Below, one piece after another: positions 20,366 through 51,748 of a stretch of DNA of 64,000 nt. Numbering within the stretch: the first letter of the stretch is position 1; the number at the start of each line of letters is the position of its first letter. The notes below the pieces were generated by a model. That model was not told the origin of the DNA, ran no database searches, and saw only the letters and a list, made by a program, of their open reading frames with translations. Location of the stretch: the NCBI GenBank assembly GCA_964531275.1, contig CAZHDZ010000004.1:3068-67067 (forward strand), given 5' to 3'. A program made the position numbers and the translations under genes. This DNA comes from an uncultured Gammaproteobacteria bacterium (GTDB taxonomy: Bacteria > Patescibacteriota > Microgenomatia > Levybacterales > GWA1-39-11).

Positions 20366-20989
20366 ATGGCAGAAGACACACCTCAAAACGAATCCTTTTT
20401 AAATCCCTCAAGACGCTCTTACGTTTATGAGTCTTCTAAAGGTTCCGGCAACAAAAAAAGAGTAATACTTATTATATTAGGGGTTATTGTGCTTGTAGCA
20501 CTTGTAGCATATGCAGTTATTGCTACTGGCGGAAAAGGAGAATTAGAAGAAGCACTAACTCCTACCCCAACAACAATTCAAGAAACCCCAACTCCAACAA
20601 TTGCTGAAGCAACGCCTACTCCCGAAGTTTCACCAACTCCAACCGGCAAGACTTCTCCCACTCCTTCAAAGGGAACACCCACACCCACCAAAACTTCAGG
20701 ATCTGACCTAGAAAAATCCAATCTGAGCCTTGAAGTATTAAATGGAAGTGGCGTTGCGGGCGCTGCAACAAAAATGTCAGATATACTAAAAAAGCTTGGG
20801 TATGAAGTTGCATCTTCGGGGAATGCTGATAACTTCGAATATGAAAAGACAGAAATTCAACTTAAGAGTACTAAAAAGGCCTATCTTCAAACGCTTAAAG
20901 ACGACTTGGGAGACGACTACACCATTGGTAGTGCAACTTCAGACTACACAGGGGATGCTGATGGCGTTGTCATTGTTGGAAAAGAATAA
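20366..20989 (+). CDS. LytR C-terminal (LytR_C) domain protein with TM anchor and PT-rich linker
   Basis: N-terminal TM helix, a (TPTPT)n linker and a C-terminal LEVLNGSGVAGAATKMSDILKKLGYEV typical of the LytR_C domain. Confidence 0.6.
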   Translation: MAEDTPQNESFLNPSRRSYVYESSKGSGNKKRVILIILGVIVLVALVAYAVIATGGKGELEEALTPTPTTIQETPTPTIAEATPTPEVSPTPTGKTSPTPSKGTPTPTKTSGSDLEKSNLSLEVLNGSGVAGAATKMSDILKKLGYEVASSGNADNFEYEKTEIQLKSTKKAYLQTLKDDLGDDYTIGSATSDYTGDADGVVIVGKE

Positions 20990-26878: not shown

Positions 26879-28384
26879 ATGAAAGATAAAATATTAGCAG
26901 CTCTTTGTGCCATTTACTTACTCATTACGTCCTTTAATTTAACGCTTCTTCCTATTTTCAATGATGAAAGCATCTATCTTGATTGGGGAATACGAGCAAC
27001 AACCCAGCCGGGGATGCTTTATTACTCAGTGTATGACGGCAAACCGCCTCTTATGATTTGGTTTTTTGGAATTTTTGAGCAGCTTTTGCCAGACCCGTTG
27101 TTAGCTGGACGGCTTGTTTCGATCATTTTTGGCCTTGCAACTCTTCTTGGGATCTTTTCTCTTAGTAAATTTCTTTTTGGCAAAAAAACGGCATATATAA
27201 CGAGCGTTCTTTATATATTCTCCCCGCTTATCTTTTTCTTTAATCGTCAAGCCCTTATGGAATCTGGTGTTGCTGCCACTGGAGTCTGGTCGACATATTT
27301 CTTTATTCGATTTCTAAAGTCTAATATGCCAAAGCACGCCTTCTATTCAGGTCTAATTTCAGGCATTGGACTTTTTATTAAAACCAACGCGACATTTTTT
27401 CTCATTGTGTCTCTTGTAGCAGGTACGTATAGAGCTTATAAAACTAAAAGTAGCATTACGGTAAAATCACTATTTCTCATGATTGCTGCATTTTGTGGCG
27501 GTTCAATTCTTCTTCTCATAAATCCCGACTTTTGGGCAACAATGCACCGAAATGCTCGATACGGAATGACTTTGTCTGAGCTATTACGCTTTCCTATTGG
27601 AATCTGGGCAAATAGTCTTTATATAAATAGCCTGATTTTATTAACAACCATTACACCATTTATATTAATAGCTTCTATATATGGACTTATTCAATGGAGG
27701 AAAAAATACGCCCTATTCATACTTCTCATTGTATCTCCAATCATTCTAGAGACTCTAACCGTAAGACAGCCTGTTCAGAGGTATCTCGTAAGCTATACCC
27801 CGTTACTGCTTATTCCAGCAGGATTTGTCTTTTCAAATCTTATTAATAATAAAAAACCCCTAGGCTTTATAGTCTTTCTAGTTTCCATCTTACCCGCATT
27901 ATATTTGGTGTGTTTACAGATTTTTTCACCAGTTACATACTTTCACACAACGCGCCTTGTCCCTAACATTACTGATAATGGATATATTGCAGGTCAATTA
28001 TCAGGGTACGGAGTAAATGCTCTTGTCCCCAAGATAAATGCTCTTGCAGATAAAAAAATTCTTGTAATGTTTGCTGAAAATACAGGGAATCCTGAGAGTG
28101 CAGTCAATATATATTTTGAAAAAAATAAGAATATACAGACAGGATACATGCAAAGCAGCTACTTTGGAGATCAATTAAAAAACTATACCTGCATTATTGA
28201 GAAAAATGGAACACCTATGTATTTCGTTAGTAGATCTTCATATTTAGCTGGCCTTGAAAAATTCATAACTCAAATCGATACAATCAAACTTCCTGAGTCT
28301 CAAGAGTTTATTGGGATATACAGAGTAAATAATGACTGTCCAAAAGAGAAAAGCCTTATAGTGGAGCCTGTAATGAGTCCTTAG
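26879..28384 (+). CDS. GT-C fold glycosyltransferase (ArnT/PMT-like, family GT39/GT83-like)
   Basis: 501 aa with about 11 TM helices. A DE motif in the first loop (FNDESIYLDWG), as in ArnT/PMT_2 enzymes. Confidence 0.65.
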   Translation: MKDKILAALCAIYLLITSFNLTLLPIFNDESIYLDWGIRATTQPGMLYYSVYDGKPPLMIWFFGIFEQLLPDPLLAGRLVSIIFGLATLLGIFSLSKFLFGKKTAYITSVLYIFSPLIFFFNRQALMESGVAATGVWSTYFFIRFLKSNMPKHAFYSGLISGIGLFIKTNATFFLIVSLVAGTYRAYKTKSSITVKSLFLMIAAFCGGSILLLINPDFWATMHRNARYGMTLSELLRFPIGIWANSLYINSLILLTTITPFILIASIYGLIQWRKKYALFILLIVSPIILETLTVRQPVQRYLVSYTPLLLIPAGFVFSNLINNKKPLGFIVFLVSILPALYLVCLQIFSPVTYFHTTRLVPNITDNGYIAGQLSGYGVNALVPKINALADKKILVMFAENTGNPESAVNIYFEKNKNIQTGYMQSSYFGDQLKNYTCIIEKNGTPMYFVSRSSYLAGLEKFITQIDTIKLPESQEFIGIYRVNNDCPKEKSLIVEPVMSP

Positions 28385-30119: not shown

Positions 30120-30659
30120 CTAAAGCAATCCTAACTTTTTAGAACATCCTCCCCATGGACCCCATCCACGGCGGGACTGAAGAAGCTTACCTTTTGATAT
30201 TTGCTCTTCGGCAGACGCATCCGATGGTTTCCCGATTCCACCTACAGAGGCCCATGCACCAAGAGAAAATTGAAGACCTCCATAATATCCGTTCCCTGTA
30301 TCAGACTTCCAATTTCTATGAGATTCACAATCTGCAATCTTATACCAAATCTCATCGCTTGAAGCATTAACAATAGGAGTTGGTGTGGGGGTCACTTTGT
30401 CTACTTCAAAACTCATTGCAATTATTTTCTCTTCATTAGGTGCTTGCGGAGGATTTATAACTTCACGTTTTGTTGCCCCAAGACCTGCTCCCAGAAAAAC
30501 ACTTTCCTGACGATATTTAACGTCTGACTCAGAATGAGCTACCCGAGCAGTATGGGTTATCAAAAAACCAGCAGATATTAGCACTATTGAGACGATAAAA
30601 CATACTCTAAAAACGAGGGACGTGAAGAAACTAGGCACTATCGGTTGTGCACTTTCCAT
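30120..30659 (-). CDS. Resuscitation-promoting-factor-like transglycosylase (secreted/anchored)
   Basis: TM/signal anchor. C-terminal WYKIADCESHRNWKSDTGNGYYGGLQFSLGAW matches the Rpf/transglycosylase-like domain including the catalytic Glu. Confidence 0.7.
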   Translation of the reverse strand: MESAQPIVPSFFTSLVFRVCFIVSIVLISAGFLITHTARVAHSESDVKYRQESVFLGAGLGATKREVINPPQAPNEEKIIAMSFEVDKVTPTPTPIVNASSDEIWYKIADCESHRNWKSDTGNGYYGGLQFSLGAWASVGGIGKPSDASAEEQISKGKLLQSRRGWGPWGGCSKKLGLL

Positions 30660-34339: not shown

Positions 34340-34939
34340 ATGTATTCCCAAGCAATCTCCCACTTTAGAAAAGCAGACCCATTACTTTACGAGTTGGCAA
34401 AAAGCATTGATCCATTTGTTCTTGAAAAAAGCCCAAACCACTTTATAAGACTCGTACGAACAATTGTCGGCCAACAACTATCGGTTAAGGCTGCTTCTAC
34501 TATATTTGGTAGATTTGAGAAATTATTTAAGGACGAAATTAATGCAGCAGAAATTCTAGAACTTAAAGACGCTGACATGAGAGCATGTGGAATTTCATAT
34601 CCAAAGATTAAATACATAAAAGATCTTTCTGATAAAGTACATACGAAAGAACTGCTACTCGAGACTTTTGAAGAGGCAGACGAAACTACTATTATTGAAA
34701 ATCTCACTCAGGTTAAGGGTATCGGGACTTGGTCTGCAGAAATGTTCTTAATGTTTGCGCTTGCTCGTCCTGATGTATTTTCCGTAGGAGATTTGGGCCT
34801 TCGAAATGCAATGATAAAGTTGTATGGACTAACAAAGCCTACCAATGAAGAATTGCTAAAAATAGCTGAAAAGTGGAGTCCTTACAGAACGTATGCGTGC
34901 AGAATTTTATGGCAAAGTCTCAATAACTCTCCAAAATAA
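34340..34939 (+). CDS. HhH-GPD DNA glycosylase (AlkA-like 3-methyladenine glycosylase II)
   Basis: VKGIGTWSAEMFLMF (HhH) followed by VFSVGDLGLRNA (GPD with catalytic Asp). The track ORF starts at TTG 34325. ATG at 34340. Confidence 0.8.
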   Translation: MYSQAISHFRKADPLLYELAKSIDPFVLEKSPNHFIRLVRTIVGQQLSVKAASTIFGRFEKLFKDEINAAEILELKDADMRACGISYPKIKYIKDLSDKVHTKELLLETFEEADETTIIENLTQVKGIGTWSAEMFLMFALARPDVFSVGDLGLRNAMIKLYGLTKPTNEELLKIAEKWSPYRTYACRILWQSLNNSPK

Positions 34940-35368
34940 CTAGTACCCTATTTTCTTAAGGATTTTCATATAAGCTTTTGTCGGAACAGAAAGATCCATC
35001 TTGCTCATTTCAGCAAGACTGAACCATGCGAGCGCACTGCATTTTTCTGGTTCTTTAATGAATGGCTTTCCTTTCTTTATTTTTGCTATGAACCCTGATG
35101 TTATCCAGTGTTGGCCCTCTTCTTTTATAATATGGTCAAGAACAGGTAGCTGTTCATAGGTTGTTATCTCTATCCCCAGCTCTTCTTTCATCTCGCGCTT
35201 AATGGTAGCCTCCATTGTATCCCCAAACTCTACCCCTCCACCGGGAAATTCCCACTTTCCCCGCTCATTTTTAGCTTTAGGACCACGTTGAGAAAGTAGT
35301 ATCTTGCCATTCTTATCAACTATTACTGCTCCAATTCCTACACCAATATAATCAATTCCTTTTTTCAT
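34940..35368 (-). CDS. NUDIX hydrolase
   Basis: Nudix box GGGVEFGDTMEATIKREMKEELGIE. The probable start is MKKGIDY (35368). The track ORF continues to 35470 through a GC-rich repeat element. Confidence 0.75.
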   Translation of the reverse strand: MKKGIDYIGVGIGAVIVDKNGKILLSQRGPKAKNERGKWEFPGGGVEFGDTMEATIKREMKEELGIEITTYEQLPVLDHIIKEEGQHWITSGFIAKIKKGKPFIKEPEKCSALAWFSLAEMSKMDLSVPTKAYMKILKKIGY

Positions 35369-35535
35369 ACCACAAATATACCACACTACCAAGGGATGAA
35401 CTAGTGATTGATGGGTAGTGATTAGTGGCAGGGTAGCATAGCATTGGGACCTATTGAGAATACGACGCAAGCATATGATTAACGAGCAGAGCGGGCGGAT
35501 GTATTCGCGAGATGGGAGAATACGATGACAGGACC

Positions 35536-36501
35536 CTAGACAATCTCTACTTCCACTTCAGGGGTGAATCCGAAGGATTCTTGCATCTCTTCTTCAATTT
35601 CAGCAATTATTGATTTCACGTCCTGAGCCTTTGCTCCTCCCATATTTACGATAAAATTCTGATGCTTCTCGCTTACCTTTGCAGCGCCTACCTGTTTTCC
35701 TTTAAAACCGAGTCTATCAATTATGTAACCCATGCTTACTTTTCCATGCCATTTACCATCCACCAATTCTCGAATATCACTCCAAGACTCTAAAATTCTA
35801 TCAACCTCTTCCTTTTTTGAAATATTCTTAAATACACTTCCACAATTTGGATAATCCAGTGGGTGCTTGTCTTGACGATAAGTTATATTTTCAAAATATT
35901 TCTCGTGCGCATTTAGCAATTCTTCTTGAGTCCCGTCACGCAGACGAAATTGAGCTGATATAACGATTAACTTTTCTTTCTTAACTTTACTTGAGCGATA
36001 CTCAAATTCCATCTCATCATGATTTAAAGTAAGTTCTTCATAACTTCCGTCCTCCTGCAGTCTTATGCAATGTGCTTTTACAAAAACATCTTTTATCTCG
36101 CCTCCAAAAGCTCCTACATTTCCTCGTACTGCAGCACCAACCGTACCCGGAAGTCCTCCCGCCCATTCAAGACCCACAAGGCCTAATTCAAATTGTGCTT
36201 GGATTACACTATCAAGAAATTCTCCTGCAAAGCTTTCGATTAATCCATTTTCCAAAAATCTTACACCCTGCCCATCATCTTGAGACTGAAATCTAATAAC
36301 AACCCCATCAAAACCCTCATCCGGAAAAAGAAGGTTTGATCCAAGGCCTAGTACAAAGACATTGGTAATATTATTTTGCTTTATATAGGAAAGTGCTTCG
36401 TAGACATCTTCTTTTGAAGCCACATCGATAACAATTTTGGCTACACCACCAATTTGATACCAGAGAATAGTTGAGAGTAGAACGTTATTGTAAATTTGCA
36501 T
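35536..36501 (-). CDS. murB: UDP-N-acetylenolpyruvoylglucosamine reductase
   Basis: FAD-binding N-terminal domain (VLGLGSNLL) and C-terminal NCGSVFKN motif of MurB. Confidence 0.85.
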   Translation of the reverse strand: MQIYNNVLLSTILWYQIGGVAKIVIDVASKEDVYEALSYIKQNNITNVFVLGLGSNLLFPDEGFDGVVIRFQSQDDGQGVRFLENGLIESFAGEFLDSVIQAQFELGLVGLEWAGGLPGTVGAAVRGNVGAFGGEIKDVFVKAHCIRLQEDGSYEELTLNHDEMEFEYRSSKVKKEKLIVISAQFRLRDGTQEELLNAHEKYFENITYRQDKHPLDYPNCGSVFKNISKKEEVDRILESWSDIRELVDGKWHGKVSMGYIIDRLGFKGKQVGAAKVSEKHQNFIVNMGGAKAQDVKSIIAEIEEEMQESFGFTPEVEVEIV

Positions 36502-38269
36502 CTGCTACGTCGTCCTCGGAAAGTCTGAGGAGCCCTTCATCGAGCCTTTTTTGATCGAGGTAATGGGCAATAAATCCGACTGAACGAGACAATACGAATA
36601 GAGCATTAAAGAACTCTTGCTCAATTAATTCATAGAGCTGCTCATCACTATATCCTTCTTTCTCTGAGAGATAATCCAAAAGAAGGGCCGCAATCGTACC
36701 ATCAACATTGAGTATTAAATTTCCTTTTTTCTCAGTTGTAACTTTTTCAACCTCAAGAGCAAAAGTCGTAAATCTTTTTGTACTTAACCTATCCAAAAAA
36801 ACCTTTAGTGCTGCTACTCTTGGATCAGGCATGTCCGTTCTGTATTTCTTGTGTCCAATTCCCTGAATATATTGTTTTTTAACGGCAAATTCTTCAACGT
36901 AAGAGGATGCATTTTTACCGTCAACAACCCCCGAGAACCAGTTGCGGGCAGCCTCATTGAGAGCTCCTCCAAAGCGAGGACCTATTGTCAAAAGCCCAGA
37001 GGATAATGAACTAACAAGATCTTTACCAGCACGAGCACTTACTATAGTATTAAGTGCACCTGATACATATGGTCCGTGATCTACGCTTATCTTTAAAATA
37101 AAATCTACTAACTCTTCAGTGTCTTGAGACTGGATTTTTTTGCCTAAGAACATTGAAGCAATTATCTTAGGAAATCCATTATTATTTGCAAAACTAAGCA
37201 AGTCTTCACCTAGCACCTGGACTTCCCCATCAACATCTTTTGAAATACTTGATGAAATTAATGCGTGTTTTCGATCGTCCATATTTTCAATTGTACCATT
37301 GGACTTATCAAAGCCAAAGTCTGAAAGATTTTGTATCATCTTAACAAATTCAGAAAAACTCTCAGGCACTTGTGCCCCCGCCTTCTTAAGTGCTTCTCTT
37401 TTTTCTTTTGCACCTTCAGCACGAGTCCCTGCCATAGCTTTTGCATGACCAAATTGCGGCGGGGTCTCAAAGAGATCCGAAATAGTACCTGCTACATAAC
37501 AAATTACCGGCTTTGTAATATGTCCTACTTCTAATAGCTTTGCTAATTTGTATTCATCCTCACCACCAAGCTCCCCATAATAAACAATGGCTTTCGTTGC
37601 ATCATCTTTTTGCGCTGCCATGAGTGCATCTACTGGCTCAAAGAGCGGAAATCTATCTCCCCCAAAAGATAAAGAGAAACTTACCTTGTTATGTGTCCTG
37701 TTAACAGTATTTATAATCTCGTTAACCATCCCACCGGATGCAGAAAGCACACAAACTCCCCCTGAGGAAAGTAAGCCAGAACTTATTATTTGTTTTTGAC
37801 TAACTCCACCAATAGCACCCACCTTAAAACTACCCGGAACCACTAACCCCACACTTGAAGGGCCAATGATTGACACATTTTTGCTCTTGGCATACTCAAA
37901 GAGTTCTATGGCGTGTTTTTCAGGAACTCCCTCTGCAAAAACAGTCCCAAATATAAGCTTAGGAAGCGTATTCATTGCCTCAATCATCGATGTAAGCACT
38001 CTTCTTCCAGAACTCACATTAAGCACTGTATTTATCTGACCCTTAAATGCTTGTGGAAGACGATTTAAAGTAGGGTAGACTGGCAACAAAATTTCCTTCT
38101 TGCCAAAAAAGTATCTATTAAAATTTCTCCCATTGGCAACAATTGCAATAATTGATGGGGAAGTACGACCTATCAAGAAATCGTAATCAAGCATTGACTG
38201 AATAATCCCAGCATGATTGCCAATAACTACTATCTTTAATGATGTCTCTCTCAGTTTTTGTATATCCAT
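36485..38269 (-). CDS. aclA: ATP-citrate lyase, large subunit (CoA-ligase alpha-like plus citrate-synthase-like domain)
   Basis: QFGHAKAMAG catalytic-His loop, ISVDHGPYVSGALNTIVSARAGKDLVSSLSSGLLTIGPRFGGA, GIGHKKY, LILNVDG and GFIAHYLDQKRL. These align closely with the C-terminal two thirds of ACLY. Confidence 0.85.
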   Translation of the reverse strand: MDIQKLRETSLKIVVIGNHAGIIQSMLDYDFLIGRTSPSIIAIVANGRNFNRYFFGKKEILLPVYPTLNRLPQAFKGQINTVLNVSSGRRVLTSMIEAMNTLPKLIFGTVFAEGVPEKHAIELFEYAKSKNVSIIGPSSVGLVVPGSFKVGAIGGVSQKQIISSGLLSSGGVCVLSASGGMVNEIINTVNRTHNKVSFSLSFGGDRFPLFEPVDALMAAQKDDATKAIVYYGELGGEDEYKLAKLLEVGHITKPVICYVAGTISDLFETPPQFGHAKAMAGTRAEGAKEKREALKKAGAQVPESFSEFVKMIQNLSDFGFDKSNGTIENMDDRKHALISSSISKDVDGEVQVLGEDLLSFANNNGFPKIIASMFLGKKIQSQDTEELVDFILKISVDHGPYVSGALNTIVSARAGKDLVSSLSSGLLTIGPRFGGALNEAARNWFSGVVDGKNASSYVEEFAVKKQYIQGIGHKKYRTDMPDPRVAALKVFLDRLSTKRFTTFALEVEKVTTEKKGNLILNVDGTIAALLLDYLSEKEGYSDEQLYELIEQEFFNALFVLSRSVGFIAHYLDQKRLDEGLLRLSEDDVADANLQ

Positions 38270-38335
38270 ATCTATTTAAAATCCAAATTCAAAACTCCAA
38301 TTTTCAAATGATCATTGGTACTTGATCATTGGTCC

Positions 38336-39520
38336 TTATTTTACCCACTCGAGGGCGGGTTCTACTATATCAGTAAGTATCAACTCTGGACCATGAATCT
38401 CTCCCAACAATTCAGTCTTTTCTAAGAAAGCTTTCATCATAGAAAGCCCTTCTTCCTGATGAGGACCTCCACGTCTTACAAAAATTTTCACATTTTGAGA
38501 TTTCAAATCCGTTGATACCTCTCCCAACGCTCGAATAATGCCTTTAAAAGTTATTCTAACGTCCGTAAAATTCGCCACACCCCCAGAAATAATGATTGAT
38601 TTATTATGGGATGTAGAGCGGAGTAGGGCAGTCAAAATATTCTTAACATACAGATAGGTCTCTTCTTCTGTAGGACTTCCACTATATTCACCATAATTAG
38701 CAAGTAAATCCCCTTTTCCCTTTTGGTAAATTTCATCAGCAGTCACCAAAGACGCCCCTCCTCCTGAAAGCAGGACAAAAATAGAGCCATTTGGATTAAG
38801 GACTTGATAACTCAGTGCTGCTGGAGTTGTTTCTTTTAATGCTTCTATCGCTTTTTCTTCTTCTGTTTTAACTTTCTTACTTCCCTCACGAAAATCATCC
38901 TTACTCCATGCACCTTCTACAAAGAATGCTGCTTCGCTATCTACTTCAACTGCTGTGTCTAAGAAATAAAATGTATCGTCTTTTACAACCAATGGATTGA
39001 TCTCTAAAAATGAAAAATAATACTCATCAAATGCAGTAATGATACTTTCAAGGGTTTCAACAGAGATTTTTAATGTAGTGGCAATATCTTTGTACTGTGA
39101 GTATCCAGTTAAAATTGATGAAGTAACAGAGTCTTTATTAGATTCAATTTCTATTCCACCTTGAGCTGAATAATGAACCATCTTGCCTTCTCGTACCCGC
39201 TCGATTGCAAAGTAAAATTCTCCACCTTCATGCTCAACAAACTCCTCCAAAATAAAATAGTTAAAGCCTTTTTCCTTTAACTTTTCTATTTCAGCCTTAA
39301 CATTTGTCCTATTTACATCAAGCACTACAAGCCCATTTTTCTTTCTCTGCTTTACACCCTGATCAACCTTCAGAACATATCGTATACCCTCTTCCATCTT
39401 TGAAAGTAGGTCTTCTACGTAATCATCATTTGTATTAATAGTAATACCTTTATAGGGAAGCTCTAAGAAAGAATACAATATTCTTTTTGCTGCAAATTCG
39501 GAGATTTTTTTCCTAGCCAT
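38336..39520 (-). CDS. aclB: ATP-citrate lyase, small subunit (ATP-grasp, succinyl-CoA-synthetase beta-like)
   Basis: YFSFLEINPLVV, LNPNGSIFVLLSGGGASLV, ANYGEYSGSPTEEETY, GGVANFTDVRITFKGIIRA and FVRRGGPHQEEGL. These match the N-terminal ACLY/AclB consensus almost block for block. Confidence 0.85.
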   Translation of the reverse strand: MARKKISEFAAKRILYSFLELPYKGITINTNDDYVEDLLSKMEEGIRYVLKVDQGVKQRKKNGLVVLDVNRTNVKAEIEKLKEKGFNYFILEEFVEHEGGEFYFAIERVREGKMVHYSAQGGIEIESNKDSVTSSILTGYSQYKDIATTLKISVETLESIITAFDEYYFSFLEINPLVVKDDTFYFLDTAVEVDSEAAFFVEGAWSKDDFREGSKKVKTEEEKAIEALKETTPAALSYQVLNPNGSIFVLLSGGGASLVTADEIYQKGKGDLLANYGEYSGSPTEEETYLYVKNILTALLRSTSHNKSIIISGGVANFTDVRITFKGIIRALGEVSTDLKSQNVKIFVRRGGPHQEEGLSMMKAFLEKTELLGEIHGPELILTDIVEPALEWVK

Positions 39521-39618
39521 ATTTTACGATTATACTAAATTATTCAACATGTTGGGGGTGACGCGACTGGGGGACCCACATTGTGAATCGCAATCCTGAT
39601 CGAAGCGAATGGTGAGAA

Positions 39619-40461
39619 TCACGAATGGGGGTGAGGAGCGGCAGGACCCCGTCGTAATAACTCCTCTATCAAATACGCCACGCCATCTTCTTCTTGCCGT
39701 GGCACTATGACATCTGAAATTGCCTTAAGTTCTTCCCTAGCATTGCCCATAGCAACCTTAAATCCACATGCTTCCATTAAGGGAAAGTCGTTGTATCCGT
39801 CCCCTACTCCAACGACCTCTTCCCGCTCAAGCTTTAACAATTTTATCAATTCAAGGACTGAGAGATTTTTTGTTGCACTTTTTGAGGTCACATCCAAGGA
39901 TTTTCCAAGATCATTATAACTTCTTACAATATTCAGTTGTGGATACATATCAATCAACAGATTTACAAATTTTTCAAATTCTTCAATAGTCCTATTCCCT
40001 AGTGGCACGTTCACCTTAGGCGCATCTTGGTGGGAAAAATCTTCGGCCTTTTTCATAATCAAGTGCTGATACATTGAAATATCATATTCGTAAGAACCAT
40101 AGAGGGCATTATCTTTCTCTATCATGAAATCATAATTACTTGAGACTAAAGTCTTTGTAAAATCAGCAAGAGTATCAGCATCAATATTTTGTGAATATAG
40201 TACATTGTCTGTCACTGGATCAATAATTTCAGAACCCCCCCTTACAATAACTGGCATTGTTATTTCTAGATTCTTAATATCATTTTTAAGCATGAAATAC
40301 TGCCGACCGGATGCAATCGTGAACAATCTTCCATTGTTCTGCCAGTTCTTAATAGCAATGGTGTTCTTATCTGAAATTATTCTGTCTCGACCCATCAGAG
40401 TACCGTCTACATCACTTACGATGAGCTTGAATTTTGATGTGTCCTGAGGGAAATGGTCCAT
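39619..40461 (-). CDS. HAD-IIB (Cof-type) phosphatase
   Basis: Motif I LIVSDVDGTL and motif IV GDGYNDFPLM. Confidence 0.8.
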   Translation of the reverse strand: MDHFPQDTSKFKLIVSDVDGTLMGRDRIISDKNTIAIKNWQNNGRLFTIASGRQYFMLKNDIKNLEITMPVIVRGGSEIIDPVTDNVLYSQNIDADTLADFTKTLVSSNYDFMIEKDNALYGSYEYDISMYQHLIMKKAEDFSHQDAPKVNVPLGNRTIEEFEKFVNLLIDMYPQLNIVRSYNDLGKSLDVTSKSATKNLSVLELIKLLKLEREEVVGVGDGYNDFPLMEACGFKVAMGNAREELKAISDVIVPRQEEDGVAYLIEELLRRGPAAPHPHS

Positions 40462-40536
40462 GCAACATTATACATCTCCCCGGTAGTAAGGTCGAGATTT
40501 CTTCACATTCAATTTGTCGTTATAATAGAATTTACA

Positions 40537-40917
40537 ATGTTTAGGGCAATTCATCATGTAGCAATAATTTGTTCTGACTACGAGATTTCTAAGAAATTCT
40601 ATACAGAAATTTTAGGGTTTGAAATTATTAAAGAAACATTCCGCGAAGAGAGAAATTCCCATAAGCTCGATCTTAGAATGGGAGATATTCAAATAGAACT
40701 CTTCTCTTTTCCAGAGCCACCAAGAAGACTTTCGTATCCAGAGGCGGCGGGTCTTCGCCACTTGGCATTTAGTGTAAAAAATATTCAGGAAACTAAATTA
40801 GAACTTGAAGAAAAGAAAATAAAAGTAGAAGAGATAAGAATAGATGAGCAAACAGGAAAAAAATACACATTCTTTCAAGATCCAGATGCTCTTCCAATAG
40901 AGATCTATGAAATTTAA
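40537..40917 (+). CDS. VOC/glyoxalase-family protein
   Basis: MFRAIHHVAIICSDYEISKKFYTEILGFEI is the canonical glyoxalase/bleomycin-resistance N-terminus. The ATG is at 40537 and the track ORF starts at 40453. Confidence 0.7.
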   Translation: MFRAIHHVAIICSDYEISKKFYTEILGFEIIKETFREERNSHKLDLRMGDIQIELFSFPEPPRRLSYPEAAGLRHLAFSVKNIQETKLELEEKKIKVEEIRIDEQTGKKYTFFQDPDALPIEIYEI

Positions 40918-40954
40918 GAGATATTAGTGAAGCGACTGGCTAGAAGCGAAACAA

Positions 40955-43096
40955 TTATTCTTCTTTAGGAACGAAGTTAGACTTTGATTTGATTTGCTCT
41001 TGGATCTGCAATGGCACTTCTTCATAGTGAGAAGGCTCCATGTATGCATTTGCACGACCCTGAGTAAGAGATCGGAGAGTCGTAATGTATCCTGAAAGTT
41101 CTGCAAGAGGAACAGTTGCAAGAATGATTCTTGAATTTCCTCTTTCTTCTGATCCTGAAATCTGAGCTCTCTTTGCAGAAAGATCTCCGATAACATCTCC
41201 CATAAATTCATCAGGAGTTGTAACTTCTACTTTCATTATAGGCTCAAGGAGTGTTACTTCTGCTTTTCTAGCACCTTGTTGGAATGCTTGTGATCCAGCG
41301 ATCTTAAATGCGATTTCCGAAGAGTCAACGTCATGGTAGGTTCCGTCATATAGTGTTACTTTTACATCAACCACTGGATATCCGAAAGCAACTCCACGCT
41401 CCATAGCTTCCTTAATACCCTTTTCAACTGGTGGTATAAATTCTGCAGGAATAGCTCCTCCCTTAATCGCATTTACAAATTCAAATCCTTCTCCTCGTGG
41501 CTTTGATTCAACAGTTATAAGAACGTGACCGTATTGTCCTCTTCCCCCCGTTTGTTTGATGTACTTAAATTCTGCGTTAGCTTTACCCTTGATTGTCTCC
41601 TTATATGCTACTTGAGGAGCACCAACATTTGCTTCAACTCCCATTTCTCTTTTCATACGCTCAACCATAATTTCAAGCTGAAGCTCTCCAACACCTGACA
41701 TGATTGTTTGTCCTGTCTCATGATTGATCTTAACGGTAAAGGTAGGATCTTCCTCCATGAGTCTTTTCATTGCTGCTCCCAATTTTTCTTGATCAGACTT
41801 AGTCTTAGGCTCAATAGCTAGTGAAATAACTGGATCTCTAAAGGTAATTTTCTGAAGAACGATTGGCTTTGCTTCATCACAAAGAGTATCTCCGGTTATT
41901 GTGTCTTTAAATCCAACGATAGCCACAATTTCTCCAGCAAAAGCTTCTTTAATTTCTTCTCTTTGATTTGCGTGCATAAGAAGAAGCCTTCCTACGCGCT
42001 CTTTGATGTCCTTTGTTGAGTTAAATGCATAGCTTCCAGATACGATCTTCCCCGAATAAATTCTGACGTAAGTAATTTTTCCTACATGAGGATCAACCTG
42101 AACTTTAAATGCAAATCCGGTAAATGCTTCTTCAGGATTTAAGTTTCTTGTCTCTTCTTGCTCGGTCTTTGGGTTCATTCCAGTTACTGTTTTAAGATCA
42201 AAAGGAGATGGTAGAAAGTCGATTACAGCGTCTAGAAGAGGCTGAACACCTTTATTTCGTAGAGAAGTTCCTGCAAAAACAGGAACAACTTTGTAAGCAA
42301 TAGTTGCTGCTCTTAATGCGGCTTTTAGTTCATCGTAACCAATTTCTTCTCCGTTGAGGTATTTTTCAAGTAAGGCGTCGTCAGTCTCAGCAATCTTTTC
42401 AATCATCTGTTCTCGGTATTTTTTAACCATGTCTGCCATTCCTTCAGGAATTTCATCTAGAACCTCAAAGCTAGCTCCCAATTCTTCTCCGCTCCAAATG
42501 TATGACTTCTCATCAAGAACATGATAAATTCCTTTAAAATCATTTTCTGCGCCAATTGGAAGTCCAATTGTGATCGGGTTTGCACCTAGTCTGTCTATAA
42601 CTGATTGGATTGTCTTTTCGTAATCAGCTCCTAATTTGTCCATTTTGTTAATAAAACAAATTCTAGGAACGTTGTATTTATCAGCCTGTCTCCAAACTGT
42701 TTCTGACTGTGACTGAACACCTTCTTCAGCATCAAGAACAGTAATTGCTCCGTCAAGAACACGAAGAGATCTTTCAACTTCAGCTGTAAAGTCTACGTGA
42801 CCGGGGGTATCAATAAGGTTGAATCTGTGGTCTTTCCAAAAAGTAGTAGTTGCAGCTGACACGATGGTGATTCCTCTTTCTCTCTCTTGGTCCATCCAGT
42901 CCATAGTTGCTGCTCCTTCATGAACTTCACCAATTTTATAAGTACGTCCCGTATAGTAAAGAATACGCTCAGAAGTTGTTGTTTTACCTGCGTCGATGTG
43001 CGCGATAATTCCAAAATTTCTAATTTTATCGAGTGCGACATTTCTGTCTTTTGTTACTGTTGTTTGTGGGGCTGTGCCTGCCATATTTTTAGTCAA
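40955..43096 (-). CDS. fusA: Elongation factor G
   Basis: [19 protein letters not shown] and DTPGHVDF. 713 aa across five domains. Confidence 0.97.
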
Positions 43097-43099
43097 AAA

Positions 43100-43125
43100 A
43101 ACGACCTCGAAAGGTCTTATGAGTT
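43100..43125 (-). terminator. Hairpin plus U-tract between the upstream ORF and fusA
   Basis: Minus-strand reading: AGACCUUUCGAGGUCG hairpin followed by UUUUUUU, immediately upstream of the fusA start. Confidence 0.35.
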
Positions 43126-43169
43126 ATTCTAACAAATTGAGGTTAAAAAAGAAAGTGGAAATTGATTTA

Positions 43170-43991
43170 TTAACCTGTCTGATCAACCGGTCTTGTTGGC
43201 TGACCAAATAATAATGCGTTGGTGTGAGTAAAATGCGCAACATGATCATATGGGACACCAGTTTCGCTTCGAACTGTTGCAACCAAATTATCAATGGAAG
43301 TTCTACTAATATTCTTCTCGAGGGTCATTCGATCAAGTTCACTTAAAGGACTTTTAGAACCTATTCTTTTATCATAAAACTCTTGAAGTGCTTCAATTTC
43401 ATAAGGCATCCAAGTACGAAGAGAGTGGGAAGCAGGCATTGCAATTGCACATGCTCGATAAAAATCCTCAATGGAACCCTCACCCCACAACAGAGAAACA
43501 TCTCTAATTGATTTTGATGAAGGGTAACCCTTACCGTAGTGGTAAAGATAAGATAGCGCTGCTTCCGTGAATGTGTCCCTCACATCTATTGCTTCTCCTC
43601 TCGCATCAGAAAGAGCCATTTCGGTTCTCATAGCCCTTAAGCTCCTACTAACGTCTGCATCAACTATGTCTAACTCATTAGCTATTCCACGGGAAAAATT
43701 TACTGTAGAAAGATGACCTTGCTGATTAGTTCCACGCACATGAACACCAACGTCTGCCAAGTGCTTATAGAATAGATCCTTTTTCGCTGAATTTCCTCTC
43801 AAAATCTCAGTCATTTCAAGCCTTGAACTAATTTTGTCCCCGCTTTTGAGTCCTGATCTAACTTGATAGACTGCATCTCTACCAACCATGACTCCCTTAT
43901 CTCGCATCATTTCAACAACACGAGCTGCCTCAATACTTTTGTTAGTTATAGGTATTCCCGCTTTTTTTTCAACTTCTTGAATTCGACTCAT
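43170..43991 (-). CDS. Hypothetical protein
   Basis: 273-aa ORF with no motif I recognise. It occupies the slot upstream of fusA where rpsG would normally be. Confidence 0.45.
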   Translation of the reverse strand: MSRIQEVEKKAGIPITNKSIEAARVVEMMRDKGVMVGRDAVYQVRSGLKSGDKISSRLEMTEILRGNSAKKDLFYKHLADVGVHVRGTNQQGHLSTVNFSRGIANELDIVDADVSRSLRAMRTEMALSDARGEAIDVRDTFTEAALSYLYHYGKGYPSSKSIRDVSLLWGEGSIEDFYRACAIAMPASHSLRTWMPYEIEALQEFYDKRIGSKSPLSELDRMTLEKNISRTSIDNLVATVRSETGVPYDHVAHFTHTNALLFGQPTRPVDQTG

Positions 43992-44120
43992 AGCCCGAGA
44001 TTATACCAAGGAATATTAAAAAAATAAACTATAGGTTAGTGAACTTCTTGATCCTTTCTCGAGTTCATAATCGGATAACGCGAGTTGCAAACTCGAATTA
44101 GGCGAGTATATACTACTTGC

Positions 44121-44429
44121 ATGGCCAACGTAATCCAGACATGTACTACCTGCTCTAATCAATTTCTTGTAATAGACCAGGAGCAAGCTTTTCTCCGTCA
44201 AAAAGGCTTACCAAATCCAACAAATTGCCCAAAGTGCCGTCAGGCTAGACGGCTTAAGCTTCGAGGAGAAAGAGTGCTTTACAAAACAGACTGTCAACAA
44301 TGCGGAAAGGAAATTGTGGTTTCGTACGACCCATCCAAAGTTACAAATAAAATACTTTGTAAAGAAGATTACGAAAAGTATTATGAAGAGCATGACCCAA
44401 TGATCACAGATCCCCTACCACAACTATGA
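44121..44429 (+). CDS. Zinc-ribbon protein (paired CxxC motifs)
   Basis: CTTCSN..17..CPKCRQ and a second pair ..CQQCGK..C. The ATG is at 44121 and the track ORF starts at TTG 44085. It overlaps the next gene with ATGA. Confidence 0.45.
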   Translation: MANVIQTCTTCSNQFLVIDQEQAFLRQKGLPNPTNCPKCRQARRLKLRGERVLYKTDCQQCGKEIVVSYDPSKVTNKILCKEDYEKYYEEHDPMITDPLPQL

Positions 44430-45346
44430 CAGCCGACACATTTTTTCTCGAATTACAAAAACTCATCACTCAGCAGCCGAAAAGACCTTCAAATACATTA
44501 AATTCCGAAGATTGCAAATATACAAATTTCGTCTATTACAGTACGGAGCTTACTAACTGCTTTGACTGTACTAATTCAACAAATGGAATATATCTTTATG
44601 ACTCTCACAACTGTGCAAATTGTGCTGATATGAATTTTTCCTTTGAGACAGAACTTTCCTATGAATGTGTAGACGCCTTTAAATGTTTTAATTGCAGCTA
44701 CATTGATGATTGTGGCAACATGACTGATTCTGACTTTAGCACCTGGTGCCTCAACTGCCATGATGTATTTGGTTGCTTTAAGCTCAAAAATAAATCGTTC
44801 TGCATATTTAACAGACAATTTACGGAAGAGGAATATCACGAAAAAGTAAAATATCTCAAGACTCTTCCTCCAGAGAAAATCCTTGCTGAGGTTGAAAAAA
44901 TAGCACTAACTCACCCCATAACTCAGACTAATGAGCATGATAATGAAAATTCAAGCTTCGGCAATTACATTTACTTTTGTAAAAATTGCTATCTCTGCTT
45001 TGATTCGACACACAATCAAGATTGTGGATACACGTATGACTCTAGCTATAATTCTAATTCTTTTGATATCTTACAGTCGGGCAATTCAGAACTATCCTAT
45101 CAAGTTTCAGATTCAGGTCAGATCTTTAATTCTGCATATGTCTTGTGGTCAAAGAATTGTCAGGACAGCATGTATCTTATTGATTGCCTGGACGTTAAAA
45201 ATTCAATGGGATGTGTTGCACTAAGCCACAAAGAGTATTGCTTCTTAAATCGACAACTTTCAAAAGAGGAATATGAAGCAATTACAAAACCATTACGTGA
45301 AGAATTAAAAACAAAATACTTCGAGTGGGGCAACTTAATCTACTAA
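44426..45346 (+). CDS. Cysteine-rich repeat protein (internal duplication; 24 Cys)
   Basis: Repeats of about 20-25 aa carry CxxC/CxNC pairs. Two halves end in similar modules (KNKSFCIFNRQFTEEEYHEKVKYL versus SHKEYCFLNRQLSKEEYEAITKPL). Confidence 0.5.
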   Translation: MTADTFFLELQKLITQQPKRPSNTLNSEDCKYTNFVYYSTELTNCFDCTNSTNGIYLYDSHNCANCADMNFSFETELSYECVDAFKCFNCSYIDDCGNMTDSDFSTWCLNCHDVFGCFKLKNKSFCIFNRQFTEEEYHEKVKYLKTLPPEKILAEVEKIALTHPITQTNEHDNENSSFGNYIYFCKNCYLCFDSTHNQDCGYTYDSSYNSNSFDILQSGNSELSYQVSDSGQIFNSAYVLWSKNCQDSMYLIDCLDVKNSMGCVALSHKEYCFLNRQLSKEEYEAITKPLREELKTKYFEWGNLIY

Positions 45347-47667
45347 ATAATAGGCTCAGGAAATTCCTCAGAAGAACTACCAGAAGCTCTTGCTGCAACT
45401 TTTCCACTGGTCCATCTCTGAATTTCATTCTCAACAGCAACTCTATTTTTGCTGTATGTCACTCGAGACTTATCAACGATTTCAATTGAGTAATCAAAAG
45501 TTGGCTTTGGAACACTAATCGTATTTGCTGAAAATGGCGTAGTTAACTTTCCATCAACGGACATTTTTACGTACATTTCTCGAGTATTAAGATTTATCAT
45601 GTCATCAGGCTTAAAGGTTGGAGAAAATTCTTTTGCCAAATACGCTGCGTCATCTCCCCCAACAGCAAAGACCACCATTGATCCTACGTTGCCAAATGCT
45701 GTGGCCTTTACTTCATCTGGAAGCTGCGCAATGTACTGGTGTGCAATCGTTAGATCCAAATGATATTTTCGAGCCTCGGAAAGGATACTCGAGAAAGCGT
45801 CCGTTGCAAAATTCTGGAATTCATCAACATAAAAGTAAAAATCACGCCTTTCCTCTTCCTTCATCTTCGCACGCGCTAAAGCTGCCTGCTGAATTTTTGT
45901 AATGAACATTGACCCTAAAAGTGCGGCGTTCTCATCTCCCAACTTTCCTTTTGAAATATTAATAAGAACAATTTTTCCCTCATTCATGAATTTTTCAAAA
46001 TCTAATGCATTCTTTTGTTGGCCAATCATATTCCTAACTATTGGATTTGAAATAAATTGCCCTACTTTATTAAGAATAGGAACAATAGCCTCATTGGAAA
46101 ACTGCTGGTTATAAGTCGCAAATTCATTTGTCCAAAAAGCTTTCACTACTGGGTCTTTTATTTGCATAACCACCTGCTGACGATAAGCAGTATCGGACAA
46201 AATTCTTGGAATACCTAAAATATTTGAGTCCGGGGTTTCAAGTAGTGCAAGCGTAATGTATCGAATAAGATGCTCCATACGTGAATTCCAAGTTGCAGCA
46301 AACAACTTCTTAAATATTGCTATAAAAAATACTGATAAATGTTGCCTTGCCTCATAGTCAGCAATAGGCTCAAGAGGATTAAACCCAATAGGAAAATCGC
46401 GGTCTGTAGGGTTGATATATACAACATCTTTTATTCTGTCCTTTGGAACATACATTAAAAGCTCATCTGCTAAATCTCCATGGGGATCTAAAAGACAACA
46501 TCCGTGTCCATTTTGTATATCTGAAATAAGCAGTAATTCCAAAAGCCTACTTTTACCACTTCCAGTTTTTCCAACTACATATAAATGTCTGCGTCTATCT
46601 AGCCGTTTTATTCCAAACTCCTTACCATCATTTCTATAATTAGTTACTCCAAATACGGACATTTCATTTGATTTAGTTTGGCCTACTATCGGCAAAATGT
46701 CTGGTGCCGGTGCTCTTTTTGACGTCGTATTAACAACGCTGCTAACAATAGCCCCTTTGTATGGGAAGTGATAGATAGTTGCAATCTCTGGAGTGGACCA
46801 CAAGTCCCCTTTCTCAAACGTACGGAATTTAAATTTCTTTGATGACTCAATACTCCATATTCCTGCTTTTTTAAGCTCATTTGTTGTACTTTTTAAGCTC
46901 TTAAGTAAATTTACCACACTCTCAAGCTTTGTCTTTGCAATCTGATGATCAACCGCCATATAGACAATTCTTAATTCTCCTTGGTACAGGCTGTGTGTAA
47001 GTTTTGCCTTCCCGGGATGGCCAGCTTCATAATTTCTAGACATAAGCTTAAATAGTGCCACATGAGAACCACGCTGCCACCATTTTGAGCCAACTCTTTT
47101 TAGTACCAATTGAATTGCAACTTGTTCTCCCCGATCGATCTTTGAGAACATTGCCGACAAATTTTTCAAAAGATCTTCTTCTAAATACTTGTATGTACTA
47201 ATTGGATACATACTCCCTTTTTTAAAATTTAGACCTGCAACGACAGATTTTTCAGGCTTAAAACTTTCAAAATAATCCGGAACAATTTCAATCTCAGCAT
47301 CTGCATATTGGGCATAGAGCTGGGATTCAATTGCGTTTTTCTGAACCTCAGGAAGAACAATATAAAAACTTAAGAACTGATTTATCGAAACCATCTCAAA
47401 GCTTATATGTGATCCTTGAGGCAATAATCTATGAATTGAGCGCAAGAAGCCTTCCATAGCATCTTCTTTTTGCTCATTTGATGGAGGAATTTTGACAAGA
47501 AGAACTACGTCCTTAAATTTCTCTTTTCTTTCTATTTCTTTTTTCAATTGTCTTTTTCTAAATAGGGGCTTGAGTGCGAAACCGAGGATAATTAGTGTAG
47601 CAATTGAGAAAATAAATACGCCTACTGATATGAAAGCTGTGAGCACTAAATCCAATACCTGTTGCAT
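45343..47667 (-). CDS. Membrane-anchored VirD4/TraG-family (type IV coupling protein-like) ATPase
   Basis: Two N-terminal TM helices. Walker A VVGKTGSGKS followed by LLDPHGDL, and Walker B FYVDEFQNF. 774 aa. Confidence 0.6.
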   Translation of the reverse strand: MQQVLDLVLTAFISVGVFIFSIATLIILGFALKPLFRKRQLKKEIERKEKFKDVVLLVKIPPSNEQKEDAMEGFLRSIHRLLPQGSHISFEMVSINQFLSFYIVLPEVQKNAIESQLYAQYADAEIEIVPDYFESFKPEKSVVAGLNFKKGSMYPISTYKYLEEDLLKNLSAMFSKIDRGEQVAIQLVLKRVGSKWWQRGSHVALFKLMSRNYEAGHPGKAKLTHSLYQGELRIVYMAVDHQIAKTKLESVVNLLKSLKSTTNELKKAGIWSIESSKKFKFRTFEKGDLWSTPEIATIYHFPYKGAIVSSVVNTTSKRAPAPDILPIVGQTKSNEMSVFGVTNYRNDGKEFGIKRLDRRRHLYVVGKTGSGKSRLLELLLISDIQNGHGCCLLDPHGDLADELLMYVPKDRIKDVVYINPTDRDFPIGFNPLEPIADYEARQHLSVFFIAIFKKLFAATWNSRMEHLIRYITLALLETPDSNILGIPRILSDTAYRQQVVMQIKDPVVKAFWTNEFATYNQQFSNEAIVPILNKVGQFISNPIVRNMIGQQKNALDFEKFMNEGKIVLINISKGKLGDENAALLGSMFITKIQQAALARAKMKEEERRDFYFYVDEFQNFATDAFSSILSEARKYHLDLTIAHQYIAQLPDEVKATAFGNVGSMVVFAVGGDDAAYLAKEFSPTFKPDDMINLNTREMYVKMSVDGKLTTPFSANTISVPKPTFDYSIEIVDKSRVTYSKNRVAVENEIQRWTSGKVAARASGSSSEEFPEPII

Positions 47668-51650: not shown

Positions 51651-51748
51651 AAAGTAAGGGGAATTATATCAAAAATGCGGTTTTGTTAGGTTTTTGTGAG
51701 GTAGCGGTGAAGCACAGCCCTACCCTCGGGCATACAATAGCCTTAATT

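Follow-up and report, generated by a model that had tools for sequence, protein, structure and literature searches.

The window examined here is a stretch of 64,000 nucleotides of the 137.9-kb contig CAZHDZ010000004.1 (assembly GCA_964531275.1), and it carries on its minus strand two adjacent genes, aclB and aclA, for a putative two-subunit ATP-citrate lyase (ACL), whose identity, inheritance and likely role are addressed in this study. The aclB gene (38336..39520, minus strand) encodes a small subunit of 394 amino acids (aa) with an ATP-grasp and a citrate-binding domain, while aclA (36485..38269, minus strand) encodes a large subunit of 594 aa, in which a CoA-ligase part with the phospho-histidine loop is fused to a citrate-synthase-homology/citryl-CoA lyase module; both assignments come from Pfam and from PDB alignments. 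The gene order is aclB-aclA, with 66 bp between the two. A first-pass annotation, made from the letters of the window alone, had read these two open reading frames (ORFs) as ACL, and we found both the ORFs and the quoted motifs exactly in place, with YFSFLEINPLVV at residue 168, ANYGEYSGSPTEEETY at residue 274 and FVRRGGPHQEEGL at residue 347 of the 394-aa protein, and QFGHAKAMAG at residue 272, LILNVDG at residue 518 and GFIAHYLDQKRL at residue 565 of the 594-aa protein. Downstream of aclA lies murB, for UDP-N-acetylmuramate dehydrogenase (35536..36501, minus strand; NCBIfam TIGR00179, 192 bits against a cutoff of 144.5); the first 17 nt of murB overlap the 3′ end of aclA, and because of this overlap the two genes are probably co-transcribed. 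A Nudix hydrolase gene follows 3′ of murB (34940..35470, minus strand; Pfam PF00293, with MutT-like NCBIfam matches only below threshold). On the other side, 98 bp upstream of aclB and on the same strand, is a gene for a Cof-type HAD-IIB phosphatase (39619..40461, minus strand; TIGR00099, 148 bits against a cutoff of 137), which is a possible member of the operon. Promoter and terminator scans of positions 34800-43300 gave 28 and 7 predictions against 22.7 ± 4.9 and 5.9 ± 2.5 in shuffled sequence, respectively, so that neither was in excess, and neither tRNA genes nor Rfam families were detected in the window.

The domain content of the two products points to ACL. The aclB product matched PF24948 (103 bits, 1.8e-29, cutoff 83) and PF16114 (186 bits, 6.3e-55, cutoff 26.8), both over the full profile length, and the aclA product matched PF00549 (1.6e-10) and PF00285 (1.2e-21, residues 363-582). 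We then compared both subunits with all PDB sequences by phmmer. AclA matched human ACLY in two stretches spanning both modules (376 bits, E = 2.9e-111), its lyase module being aligned with human residues 863-1092, and its residues 9-589 matched residues 11-607 of Methanosaeta (Methanothrix) concilii ACLY-B in one stretch (370 bits, E = 1.3e-109). Similarly, residues 2-390 of AclB were aligned with human ACLY 2-419 (about 200 bits, E of about 1e-58), and residues 1-391 with M. concilii ACLY-A (about 200 bits). The score of AclA was 235 bits with Chlorobium limicola AclA and at most 89 bits with the alpha subunit of succinyl-CoA synthetase (SCS); it was 76 bits with citryl-CoA synthetase (CCS) and 56 bits with citryl-CoA lyase (CCL). 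An identity as SCS was rejected with the NCBIfam models, which gave 58 and 55 bits for SucC (cutoffs 376 and 370) and 115 and 108 bits for SucD (cutoffs 336 and 353). CcsAB plus Ccl was rejected as well, for the lyase module is fused to AclA, and CCS and CCL scored 56-76 bits against 370-376 bits for ACLY. The profile and sequence searches that the first-pass annotation had proposed thus found PF16114 and PF00285, with ACLY as the best PDB match above SCS and CCS. Taken together, the ACL domains, the full-length ACLY alignments and the low SCS and CCS/CCL scores indicate that aclBA very probably encodes an intact two-subunit ACL (EC 2.3.3.8) in the order aclB-aclA, as first proposed, and that by these scores the enzyme is of the ACLY/M. 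concilii type as opposed to the Chlorobium type.

Residues were compared in the numbering of human ACLY, read off the query-ACLY alignments. The roles of H760, E599, F347, D1026, H900, R976 and R1065 in ACLY have been described (PMC10115795). The equivalent of H760 is residue 275 of AclA, within the QFGH motif, and that of E599 is residue 113, within FAEGVPE. The AclA equivalents of E599, H760, H900, H975, D1026 and R1065 were invariant in 137 homologues, so that the catalytic His and Asp, on which the first-pass annotation had laid weight, are both intact. The query AclB keeps the equivalents of G309, N346, F347, T348 and R379 in the ACLY alignment. G309, N346, T348 and R379, which we take from the 3MWD structure to be citrate ligands, are strongly conserved: the equivalents of G309, N346 and R379 were invariant in 62/62 sequences of the candidate phyla radiation (CPR) type, the clade described below, and T348 was kept in 61 of the 62. 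The sole difference noted was at R976, which in the human enzyme binds 'non-productive' CoA (PMC10115795) and which is replaced by Lys in the query and in 97/137 homologues.

The genes surrounding aclBA bear on the host. The window contains the S10-spc ribosomal operon, secY, adk, tuf, fusA and rpoBC. The S5 gene (3058-3495) is followed after 3 bp by the L15 gene (2626-3054), with no L30 gene between them, and a missing L30 is a known trait of CPR bacteria. The RpoC of the window shares a 90%-identity cluster with a Candidatus Levybacteria protein, and the named AclA homologues at 57-77% identity belong to Levybacteria, Levyibacteriota or the 'Patescibacteria group'. By these markers the host is a member of Candidatus Levybacteria within the CPR, with a reduced genome, which bears out the CPR-like signatures noticed at first. 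Many metagenome-assembled genomes (MAGs) titled 'uncultured Gammaproteobacteria bacterium' (among our loci L002-L024) likewise showed the Levybacteria-type gene order, with EF-G identities to the window of up to 98%, and these titles look like placeholder or erroneous taxonomy.

We then asked whether aclBA is native to this genome. Both genes were typical of the window in GC content (aclA 0.393 and aclB 0.365; window genes 0.378 ± 0.025), in GC at third codon positions (GC3; 0.301 and 0.278; window genes 0.288 ± 0.043) and in codon-usage distance (0.099 and 0.096; window genes of at least 250 aa 0.113 ± 0.020). Across about 25 genome loci, the identity of AclA to the window copy tracked that of AclB, MurB, EF-G and an HhH-GPD glycosylase (Pearson r 0.95-0.98). 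AclA was still about 57% identical in loci where MurB had fallen to 47-51%, indicating strong purifying selection on AclA. These results indicate that aclBA is vertically inherited within Levybacteria; the composition of the genes and their divergence in step with AclB, MurB and EF-G agree with the early suggestion of housekeeping integration rather than recent insertion.

Clustering of AclA at 50% gave 63 representatives, from which a neighbor-joining (NJ) tree, distance-based only, was built. In 100/100 bootstraps the query grouped with the Levybacteria and with six deeper representatives, of which one is named Dojkabacteria, and this group is the CPR-type clade; Levybacteria alone were recovered in 97/100. 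In the trimmed alignment, the identity of the query AclA was 40-41% with archaeal/DPANN sequences, 37-39% with the fused ACLY of eukaryotes and 31% with the AclA of Chlorobiaceae (P0193). Membership in the Chlorobium-type clade, which holds the AclAB of the classical reductive tricarboxylic acid (rTCA) cycle and would mean grouping with AclA of Chlorobi, Campylobacterota or Nitrospirota, was rejected on this 31% identity and on the separation of the CPR-type clade in 100/100 bootstraps. The enzyme had been called near-ACLY at first, and this holds insofar as ACLY and the M. concilii enzyme score above Chlorobium; it does not hold as a statement of close relationship, since identity to the eukaryotic enzymes is only about 37-39% and the CPR-type sequences form a clade of their own (100/100). 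One protein of 1003 aa (P0128) matched the query in four stretches and has, at its N-terminal end, the part that corresponds to the N-terminal region of AclA (468 bits, 36% identity), an architecture that departs from the two-subunit form as well as from classical fused ACLY.

The neighbourhood of aclBA was compared in Levybacteria and over about 90 further loci, the latter obtained from contig look-ups and one metagenome scan. Of the 33 loci with a murB gene, 32 have it 3′ of aclA and on the strand of aclA, and murB overlaps aclA or is less than 150 bp away in 20. The fusA gene lies upstream in many Levybacteria loci, and a GNAT acetyltransferase gene adjoins murB in five. The Cof-type phosphatase (cluster c8) was found in 10 loci, mostly with an AclA at least 68% identical to the window copy, and the Nudix hydrolase gene occupies the position it has in the window in only about six closely related loci. 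The first-pass annotation had placed the Cof-type phosphatase, murB and the Nudix hydrolase in one apparent operon with aclBA; all three genes are present, and the linkage to murB is widely conserved, whereas the phosphatase and the Nudix hydrolase accompany aclBA only in close relatives. In some relatives, aclA and murB are separated by a small ORF, which encodes either a 116-aa member of the 23S rRNA-intervening-sequence family (PF05635; L003, L004, L010, L011, L021 and L055, e.g. L010:11911-12261) or a protein of 111 aa that has three hydrophobic segments but matches no Pfam family (L014, L016, L023, L058 and L072, e.g. L023:8402-8737).

A deeper Levybacteria subclade, with AclA 57-60% identical to the window copy, showed the one-strand order greA-tdh-kbl-aclB-aclA-murB. 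The tdh-kbl pair lies directly upstream of aclB in L013, L017, L019, L020 and L022 (e.g. L019:6597-8815). The tdh product scored 352 bits on the L-threonine 3-dehydrogenase equivalog, just under the cutoff of 380, and the kbl product scored 457 bits on the glycine C-acetyltransferase equivalog, just under the cutoff of 460. Tdh and Kbl together convert threonine to glycine and acetyl-CoA. The kbl cluster (c22) has the class-I/II aminotransferase fold and was also considered as an oxaloacetate-using aspartate aminotransferase; this was rejected on the same NCBIfam match to glycine C-acetyltransferase (457 bits, cutoff 460).

Outside Levybacteria, other genes of acetyl-CoA and amino-sugar metabolism adjoin aclBA. 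Directly upstream of aclB and on the same strand, CPR-type loci carried an Acyl_transf_3 membrane acyltransferase in five cases and a GNAT acetyltransferase in six; the Acyl_transf_3 genes beside aclBA fall into three separate protein clusters, and the GNAT at this position (c54) gave only weak matches (E of about 1e-6) to glucosamine-6-phosphate N-acetyltransferases among many other GNATs. Directly downstream of aclA, we found GlmS in three loci (507 bits, in a full-length alignment to E. coli GlmS) and GlmM in two (318 bits to phosphoglucosamine mutases versus at most 156 for generic phosphoglucomutase/phosphomannomutase, PGM/PMM). Genes for RmlA-like, RmlD, ManC-like and epimerase/dehydratase proteins were likewise frequent near CPR-type aclBA. 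In a neighbouring clade (L034), aclBA is flanked by genes for a DegT-type sugar aminotransferase and a hexapeptide-repeat N-acetyltransferase, with an epimerase gene on the other side, all on one strand within a 20-kb glycan cluster with glycosyltransferases and a flippase; in the PDB, the acetyltransferase matched best to WlbB, QdtC and other nucleotide-sugar N-acetyltransferases related to these. In a DPANN archaeon (Norongarragalinales, L036:7340-9779), orthologues of kbl and tdh that are 47% and 46% identical to those of Levybacteria adjoin aclBA in a different arrangement, and the adjacency of tdh/kbl and aclBA thus recurs in two domains of life. On an archaeal contig (L039, which encodes PcrB and Rpr2), the genes of a two-subunit 2-oxoacid:ferredoxin oxidoreductase (OFOR) lie upstream of aclBA and divergently adjacent to it. 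On this contig, the gene upstream of aclA (L039:4042-4323) is a fragment of 93 aa with the citrate-binding domain only, so that aclB may be frameshifted or split. Two candidate assignments were discarded. The recurrent 397-aa neighbour c26 was considered as a transporter, and it has no Pfam match and no predicted transmembrane segment and resembles a secreted surface protein. The nucleotidyltransferases c25 and c32 were considered as genes of the UDP-GlcNAc pathway, and the PDB match of c32 was mannose-1-phosphate guanylyltransferase; both were therefore counted as other sugar-nucleotide genes.

To count these associations, hidden Markov models (HMMs) were built from the annotated clusters and run equally on all loci, with 'near' meaning within two genes of aclBA and 'far' meaning four or more genes away. 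In the CPR-type loci (n = 74), acetyl/acyltransferases were found at 17/239 near versus 3/593 far, and GlmS, GlmM or MurB at 38/239 near versus 5/593 far; in another prokaryotic ACL clade (n = 27), both groups gave 0/86 near and 0/133 far. The reverse was seen for aconitase or isocitrate dehydrogenase (IDH), with 0/239 near and 0/593 far in the CPR-type loci as compared with 27/86 near and 1/133 far in the other clade. Counted by locus, 48/74 CPR-type loci had at least one acetyl/acyltransferase, GlmS, GlmM or MurB within two genes, and 19/27 loci of the other clade had an aconitase or IDH (monomeric or Iso_dh type) at that distance. The recurrent partners of CPR-type aclBA are thus users of acetyl-CoA (N- and O-acetyltransferases), amino-sugar genes (GlmS, GlmM, MurB) and makers of acetyl-CoA (Tdh-Kbl, OFOR), and their common denominator is the acetyl-CoA pool.

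Building on the domain architecture, the intact residues, the clade membership, the vertical inheritance and the neighbourhood pattern observed above, we infer the activity of the enzyme, the direction of its flux, the source of its citrate and the fate of its oxaloacetate. We propose that ACL serves here as an anabolic supplier of acetyl-CoA for the acetylation of amino sugars and the cell envelope, a reading to which we give a probability of roughly 0.55-0.6. By analogy with the characterised enzyme, ATP would phosphorylate the conserved His (the H760 equivalent, AclA residue 275), citrate bound by AclB would be converted to citryl-phosphate and then to citryl-CoA, and citryl-CoA would be cleaved to acetyl-CoA and oxaloacetate. 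The enzyme would work in vivo in the cleavage direction, from citrate, ATP and CoA to acetyl-CoA and oxaloacetate, as does eukaryotic cytosolic ACLY. We favour this direction because aclBA lies within biosynthetic operons, where a supplier fits, and because no citrate-withdrawing enzyme is found nearby. Citrate might be scavenged from the environment or from a host. The main sinks of acetyl-CoA would be the N- and O-acetylation of cell-envelope amino sugars, including the route from UDP-GlcNAc to UDP-MurNAc to which murB belongs, and in some relatives Tdh and Kbl may form a second, neighbouring source of acetyl-CoA, from threonine.

Several points weigh against this proposal. In none of the loci was a citrate transporter recognised near aclBA, and GlmU, the acetyl-CoA-consuming step of UDP-GlcNAc synthesis, was not found adjoining aclBA. 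The adjacency of Tdh-Kbl and OFOR fits the consumption of acetyl-CoA by ACL equally well. Moreover, the enrichment is biased upward, as recurrence near aclBA was the ground on which the seed families were picked; many of the loci have a common ancestry, and the linkage to murB probably goes back to one ancestral event; and most metagenomic loci of the 'CPR type' were assigned by best hit to reference AclA only. For these three reasons the within-clade p-values are optimistic. The contrast between the two clades, obtained with identical HMMs, is the robust result.

The main rival of the supply of acetyl-CoA by ACL is the same reaction in reverse, in which ACL would act in vivo as an ATP-yielding citrate synthase and turn acetyl-CoA, oxaloacetate, ADP and Pi into citrate, CoA and ATP. 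Such operation is chemically possible, and it would conserve the thioester energy of acetyl-CoA formed by Tdh-Kbl or by a 2-oxoacid:ferredoxin oxidoreductase, in keeping with the position of tdh-kbl immediately 5′ of aclB in five loci of Levybacteria and beside aclBA in the DPANN archaeon, and with the divergently adjacent two-subunit OFOR of the archaeal locus. The ACL of Desulfobacter postgatei, studied by Moller, Schauder, Fuchs and Thauer in 1987, is said to provide a precedent for the citrate-forming, ATP-yielding direction. However, most of the recurrent neighbours are biosynthetic users of acetyl-CoA or amino-sugar genes and not catabolic enzymes, and no aconitase or IDH that could withdraw citrate lies near aclBA in the 74 CPR-type loci. 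Reverse operation would also presumably spend one oxaloacetate for each ATP without a cycle to regenerate it, while acetate-forming routes yield the same ATP without this cost. We thus consider the reverse direction rather unlikely.

A second possibility is that the ACL fold has been kept for another substrate, such as a different hydroxy-tricarboxylate or dicarboxylate, or that the enzyme serves mainly to supply oxaloacetate. The finding of no citrate transporter or further citrate-metabolising gene nearby, and the Lys at the R976 position in the query and in 97/137 homologues, would be consistent with a change of substrate, but all citrate-binding and catalytic residues that we checked are invariant or nearly so. 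As to oxaloacetate, the recurrent neighbours use acetyl-CoA instead, and the only neighbouring protein with a class-I/II aminotransferase fold is Kbl and not an aspartate aminotransferase. Both forms of this alternative appear improbable to us.

A function of this ACL as the key enzyme of the rTCA cycle, and with it autotrophic CO2 fixation, seems more improbable still, even though aclAB is the usual rTCA marker gene and is used as such in surveys. HMMs built from aconitase and IDH genes found neither in the 64-kb window, and Pfam found no aconitase, IDH, 2-oxoglutarate:ferredoxin oxidoreductase (OGOR), fumarate reductase or pyruvate:ferredoxin oxidoreductase (PFOR) among 49 ORFs of the window, 25 of which lie outside the core ribosomal-protein and RNA-polymerase genes. 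Aconitase and IDH do cluster with aclBA in the other ACL clade, in contrast with 0/74 CPR-type loci, and the CPR-type AclA stands in a separate clade with 31% identity to Chlorobiaceae AclA. A passage in PMC9671151, citing Probst 2017, likewise describes aclAB in Patescibacteria MAGs without other rTCA genes. The initial framing of these genes as an rTCA hallmark does not fit, since TCA genes are missing from the surroundings of aclBA in the window, and aconitase and IDH from those in the 74 CPR-type loci. Finally, an origin of the genes by contamination during assembly or binning, or by recent horizontal transfer out of a eukaryote, Chlorobi or some other rTCA organism, might be suggested by eukaryotic ACLY being the best-scoring solved structure, but we regard it as excluded by the sequence data, in that the genes share one contig with fusA, murB and the ribosomal and RNA-polymerase operons at typical GC, GC3 and codon usage, the order fusA-aclB-aclA-murB is kept in many MAGs with AclA divergence tracking that of EF-G, and the clade stands apart from the eukaryotic and Chlorobi clades (100/100 bootstraps). 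Each of the findings that the first-pass annotation had named as fatal to its ACL assignment (a best match to SCS or CCS, a lost His or Asp, a contaminant contig) thus turned out otherwise.

The window holds some further genes. A bacterial type IB topoisomerase (PF01028 and PF21338) and a lamin-tail-domain protein lie side by side in the 31930-32976/30754-31884 region; the synteny of the topoisomerase gene is kept in related Levybacteria loci, and no other long gene of the window exceeds the lamin-tail gene in GC (0.43) or in codon-usage distance (0.161). Between fusA and guaA, a block at 43170-47667 encodes a VirD4/TraG-like coupling ATPase (774 aa; DUF87, TrwB_AAD_bind and TraG-D_C), together with a treble-clef zinc-finger protein and a pair of ORFs without Pfam match. 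Most related loci lack this block at the corresponding position, and it may represent a module of the secretion, conjugation or competence type. An ORF of 574 aa with a TTG start (51683-53407) matched no PDB chain at E <= 1e-5. After secY there are tandem nucleotide-kinase-like genes, for adenylate kinase (ADK; 716-1273) and a P-loop kinase-like protein (146-715), and the matching 2.9-kb contig L123 has a further ADK-family gene ahead of the methionine aminopeptidase gene. Envelope-related genes are scattered over the window at 14829-15833, 18544-19611, 20366-20989, 26879-28384 and 30120-30659 and encode class-A beta-lactamase-like, GH18 hydrolase, LytR_C, PMT_2 glycosyltransferase and transglycosylase-like proteins; none of them belongs to the partner families that adjoin aclBA in other loci.

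The first-pass annotation had called ACL unexpected in a CPR genome, yet its presence there is already in print. Besides the Patescibacteria MAGs of PMC9671151, aclAB is enriched in Saccharimonadia (PMC12577380), and the citrate-cleavage homologues in CPR and DPANN genomes frequently carry a wrong annotation, as SCS or citrate synthase (bioRxiv 10.1101/2022.10.25.513756). What is added here is the clade-specific genomic context. In our literature search, we found no paper linking Levybacteria with ATP citrate lyase, no characterised CPR-type ACL, no treatment of ACL function in CPR organisms and no paper on such a context-based role of ACL. As a more tentative generalisation, which we hold with somewhat less than even confidence, the CPR-type ACLs, and perhaps their DPANN relatives, might form a distinct class of dedicated anabolic acetyl-CoA generators for the synthesis and acetylation of envelope amino sugars, with murB, glmS, glmM, Acyl_transf_3, GNAT and LbH acetyltransferases as possible partners and sometimes a Tdh-Kbl module. 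If this is true, they would be a prokaryotic counterpart of the nucleocytosolic role of eukaryotic ACLY, and citrate would be a key metabolite that ultra-small, TCA-less cells scavenge from their hosts or surroundings. As aclAB is routinely scored as an autotrophy marker in metagenome surveys, the CPR-type context warns against an automatic reading of this kind. It also bears on the question of where bacteria that lack a TCA cycle and depend on hosts get the acetyl-CoA for their peptidoglycan and surface glycans, with citrate, and also threonine, as candidate cross-fed metabolites. Further, a biosynthetic ACL in reduced prokaryotes would bear on the origin of the cytosolic role in eukaryotes, because eukaryotic ACLA/B branches with DPANN sequences (PMC11976288).

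Among the known systems, the query most resembles M. concilii ACLY-A/ACLY-B (6HXI, 6ZNW) and human ACLY (6HXH, 6UUZ), with which it shares the domain order and the same catalytic and citrate-site residues (E599, H760, H900, H975, D1026, R1065, G309, N346, F347, T348 and R379). Human cytosolic ACLY also offers a parallel to the proposed role, in that it provides biosynthetic acetyl-CoA outside the TCA cycle. The query is two-subunit like the M. concilii enzyme, whereas animal ACLY is fused with a regulatory linker; it differs from both in its identity of only about 37-41% (trimmed alignment), its separate clade, the Lys in place of R976, its reduced CPR host and a context of murB, glmS, glmM and acetyltransferases. 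The classical rTCA enzyme of Chlorobium limicola, AclB/AclA (6HXJ), has the two-subunit architecture, gene order, nomenclature and chemistry in common with the query, but it works in a complete rTCA cycle, while the CPR-type genes have no accompanying TCA genes, and the similarity is limited to 235 bits and, for the Chlorobiaceae sequence P0193, 31% identity. Hydrogenobacter thermophilus CcsAB (6HXQ) and Ccl (6HXP) consist of homologous modules and carry out the same two chemical steps; their lyase is a separate protein, in contrast to the lyase fused to the large subunit in the query, and the scores were 76, 58 and 56 bits. The ACL of Desulfobacter postgatei reportedly serves outside autotrophy and runs toward citrate with formation of ATP, which is the direction of the main rival reading; there the citrate is said to be removed by a complete citric acid cycle, and no such cycle is evident here. 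Lastly, the other prokaryotic ACL clade (metagenomic loci L091-L121) belongs to the same two-subunit aclB-aclA family, with AclA 51-63% identical to eukaryote-type representatives. In that clade aclBA is embedded in TCA-cycle gene clusters, whereas the CPR-type genes are never found in such clusters and lie instead beside acetyltransferase and amino-sugar genes.

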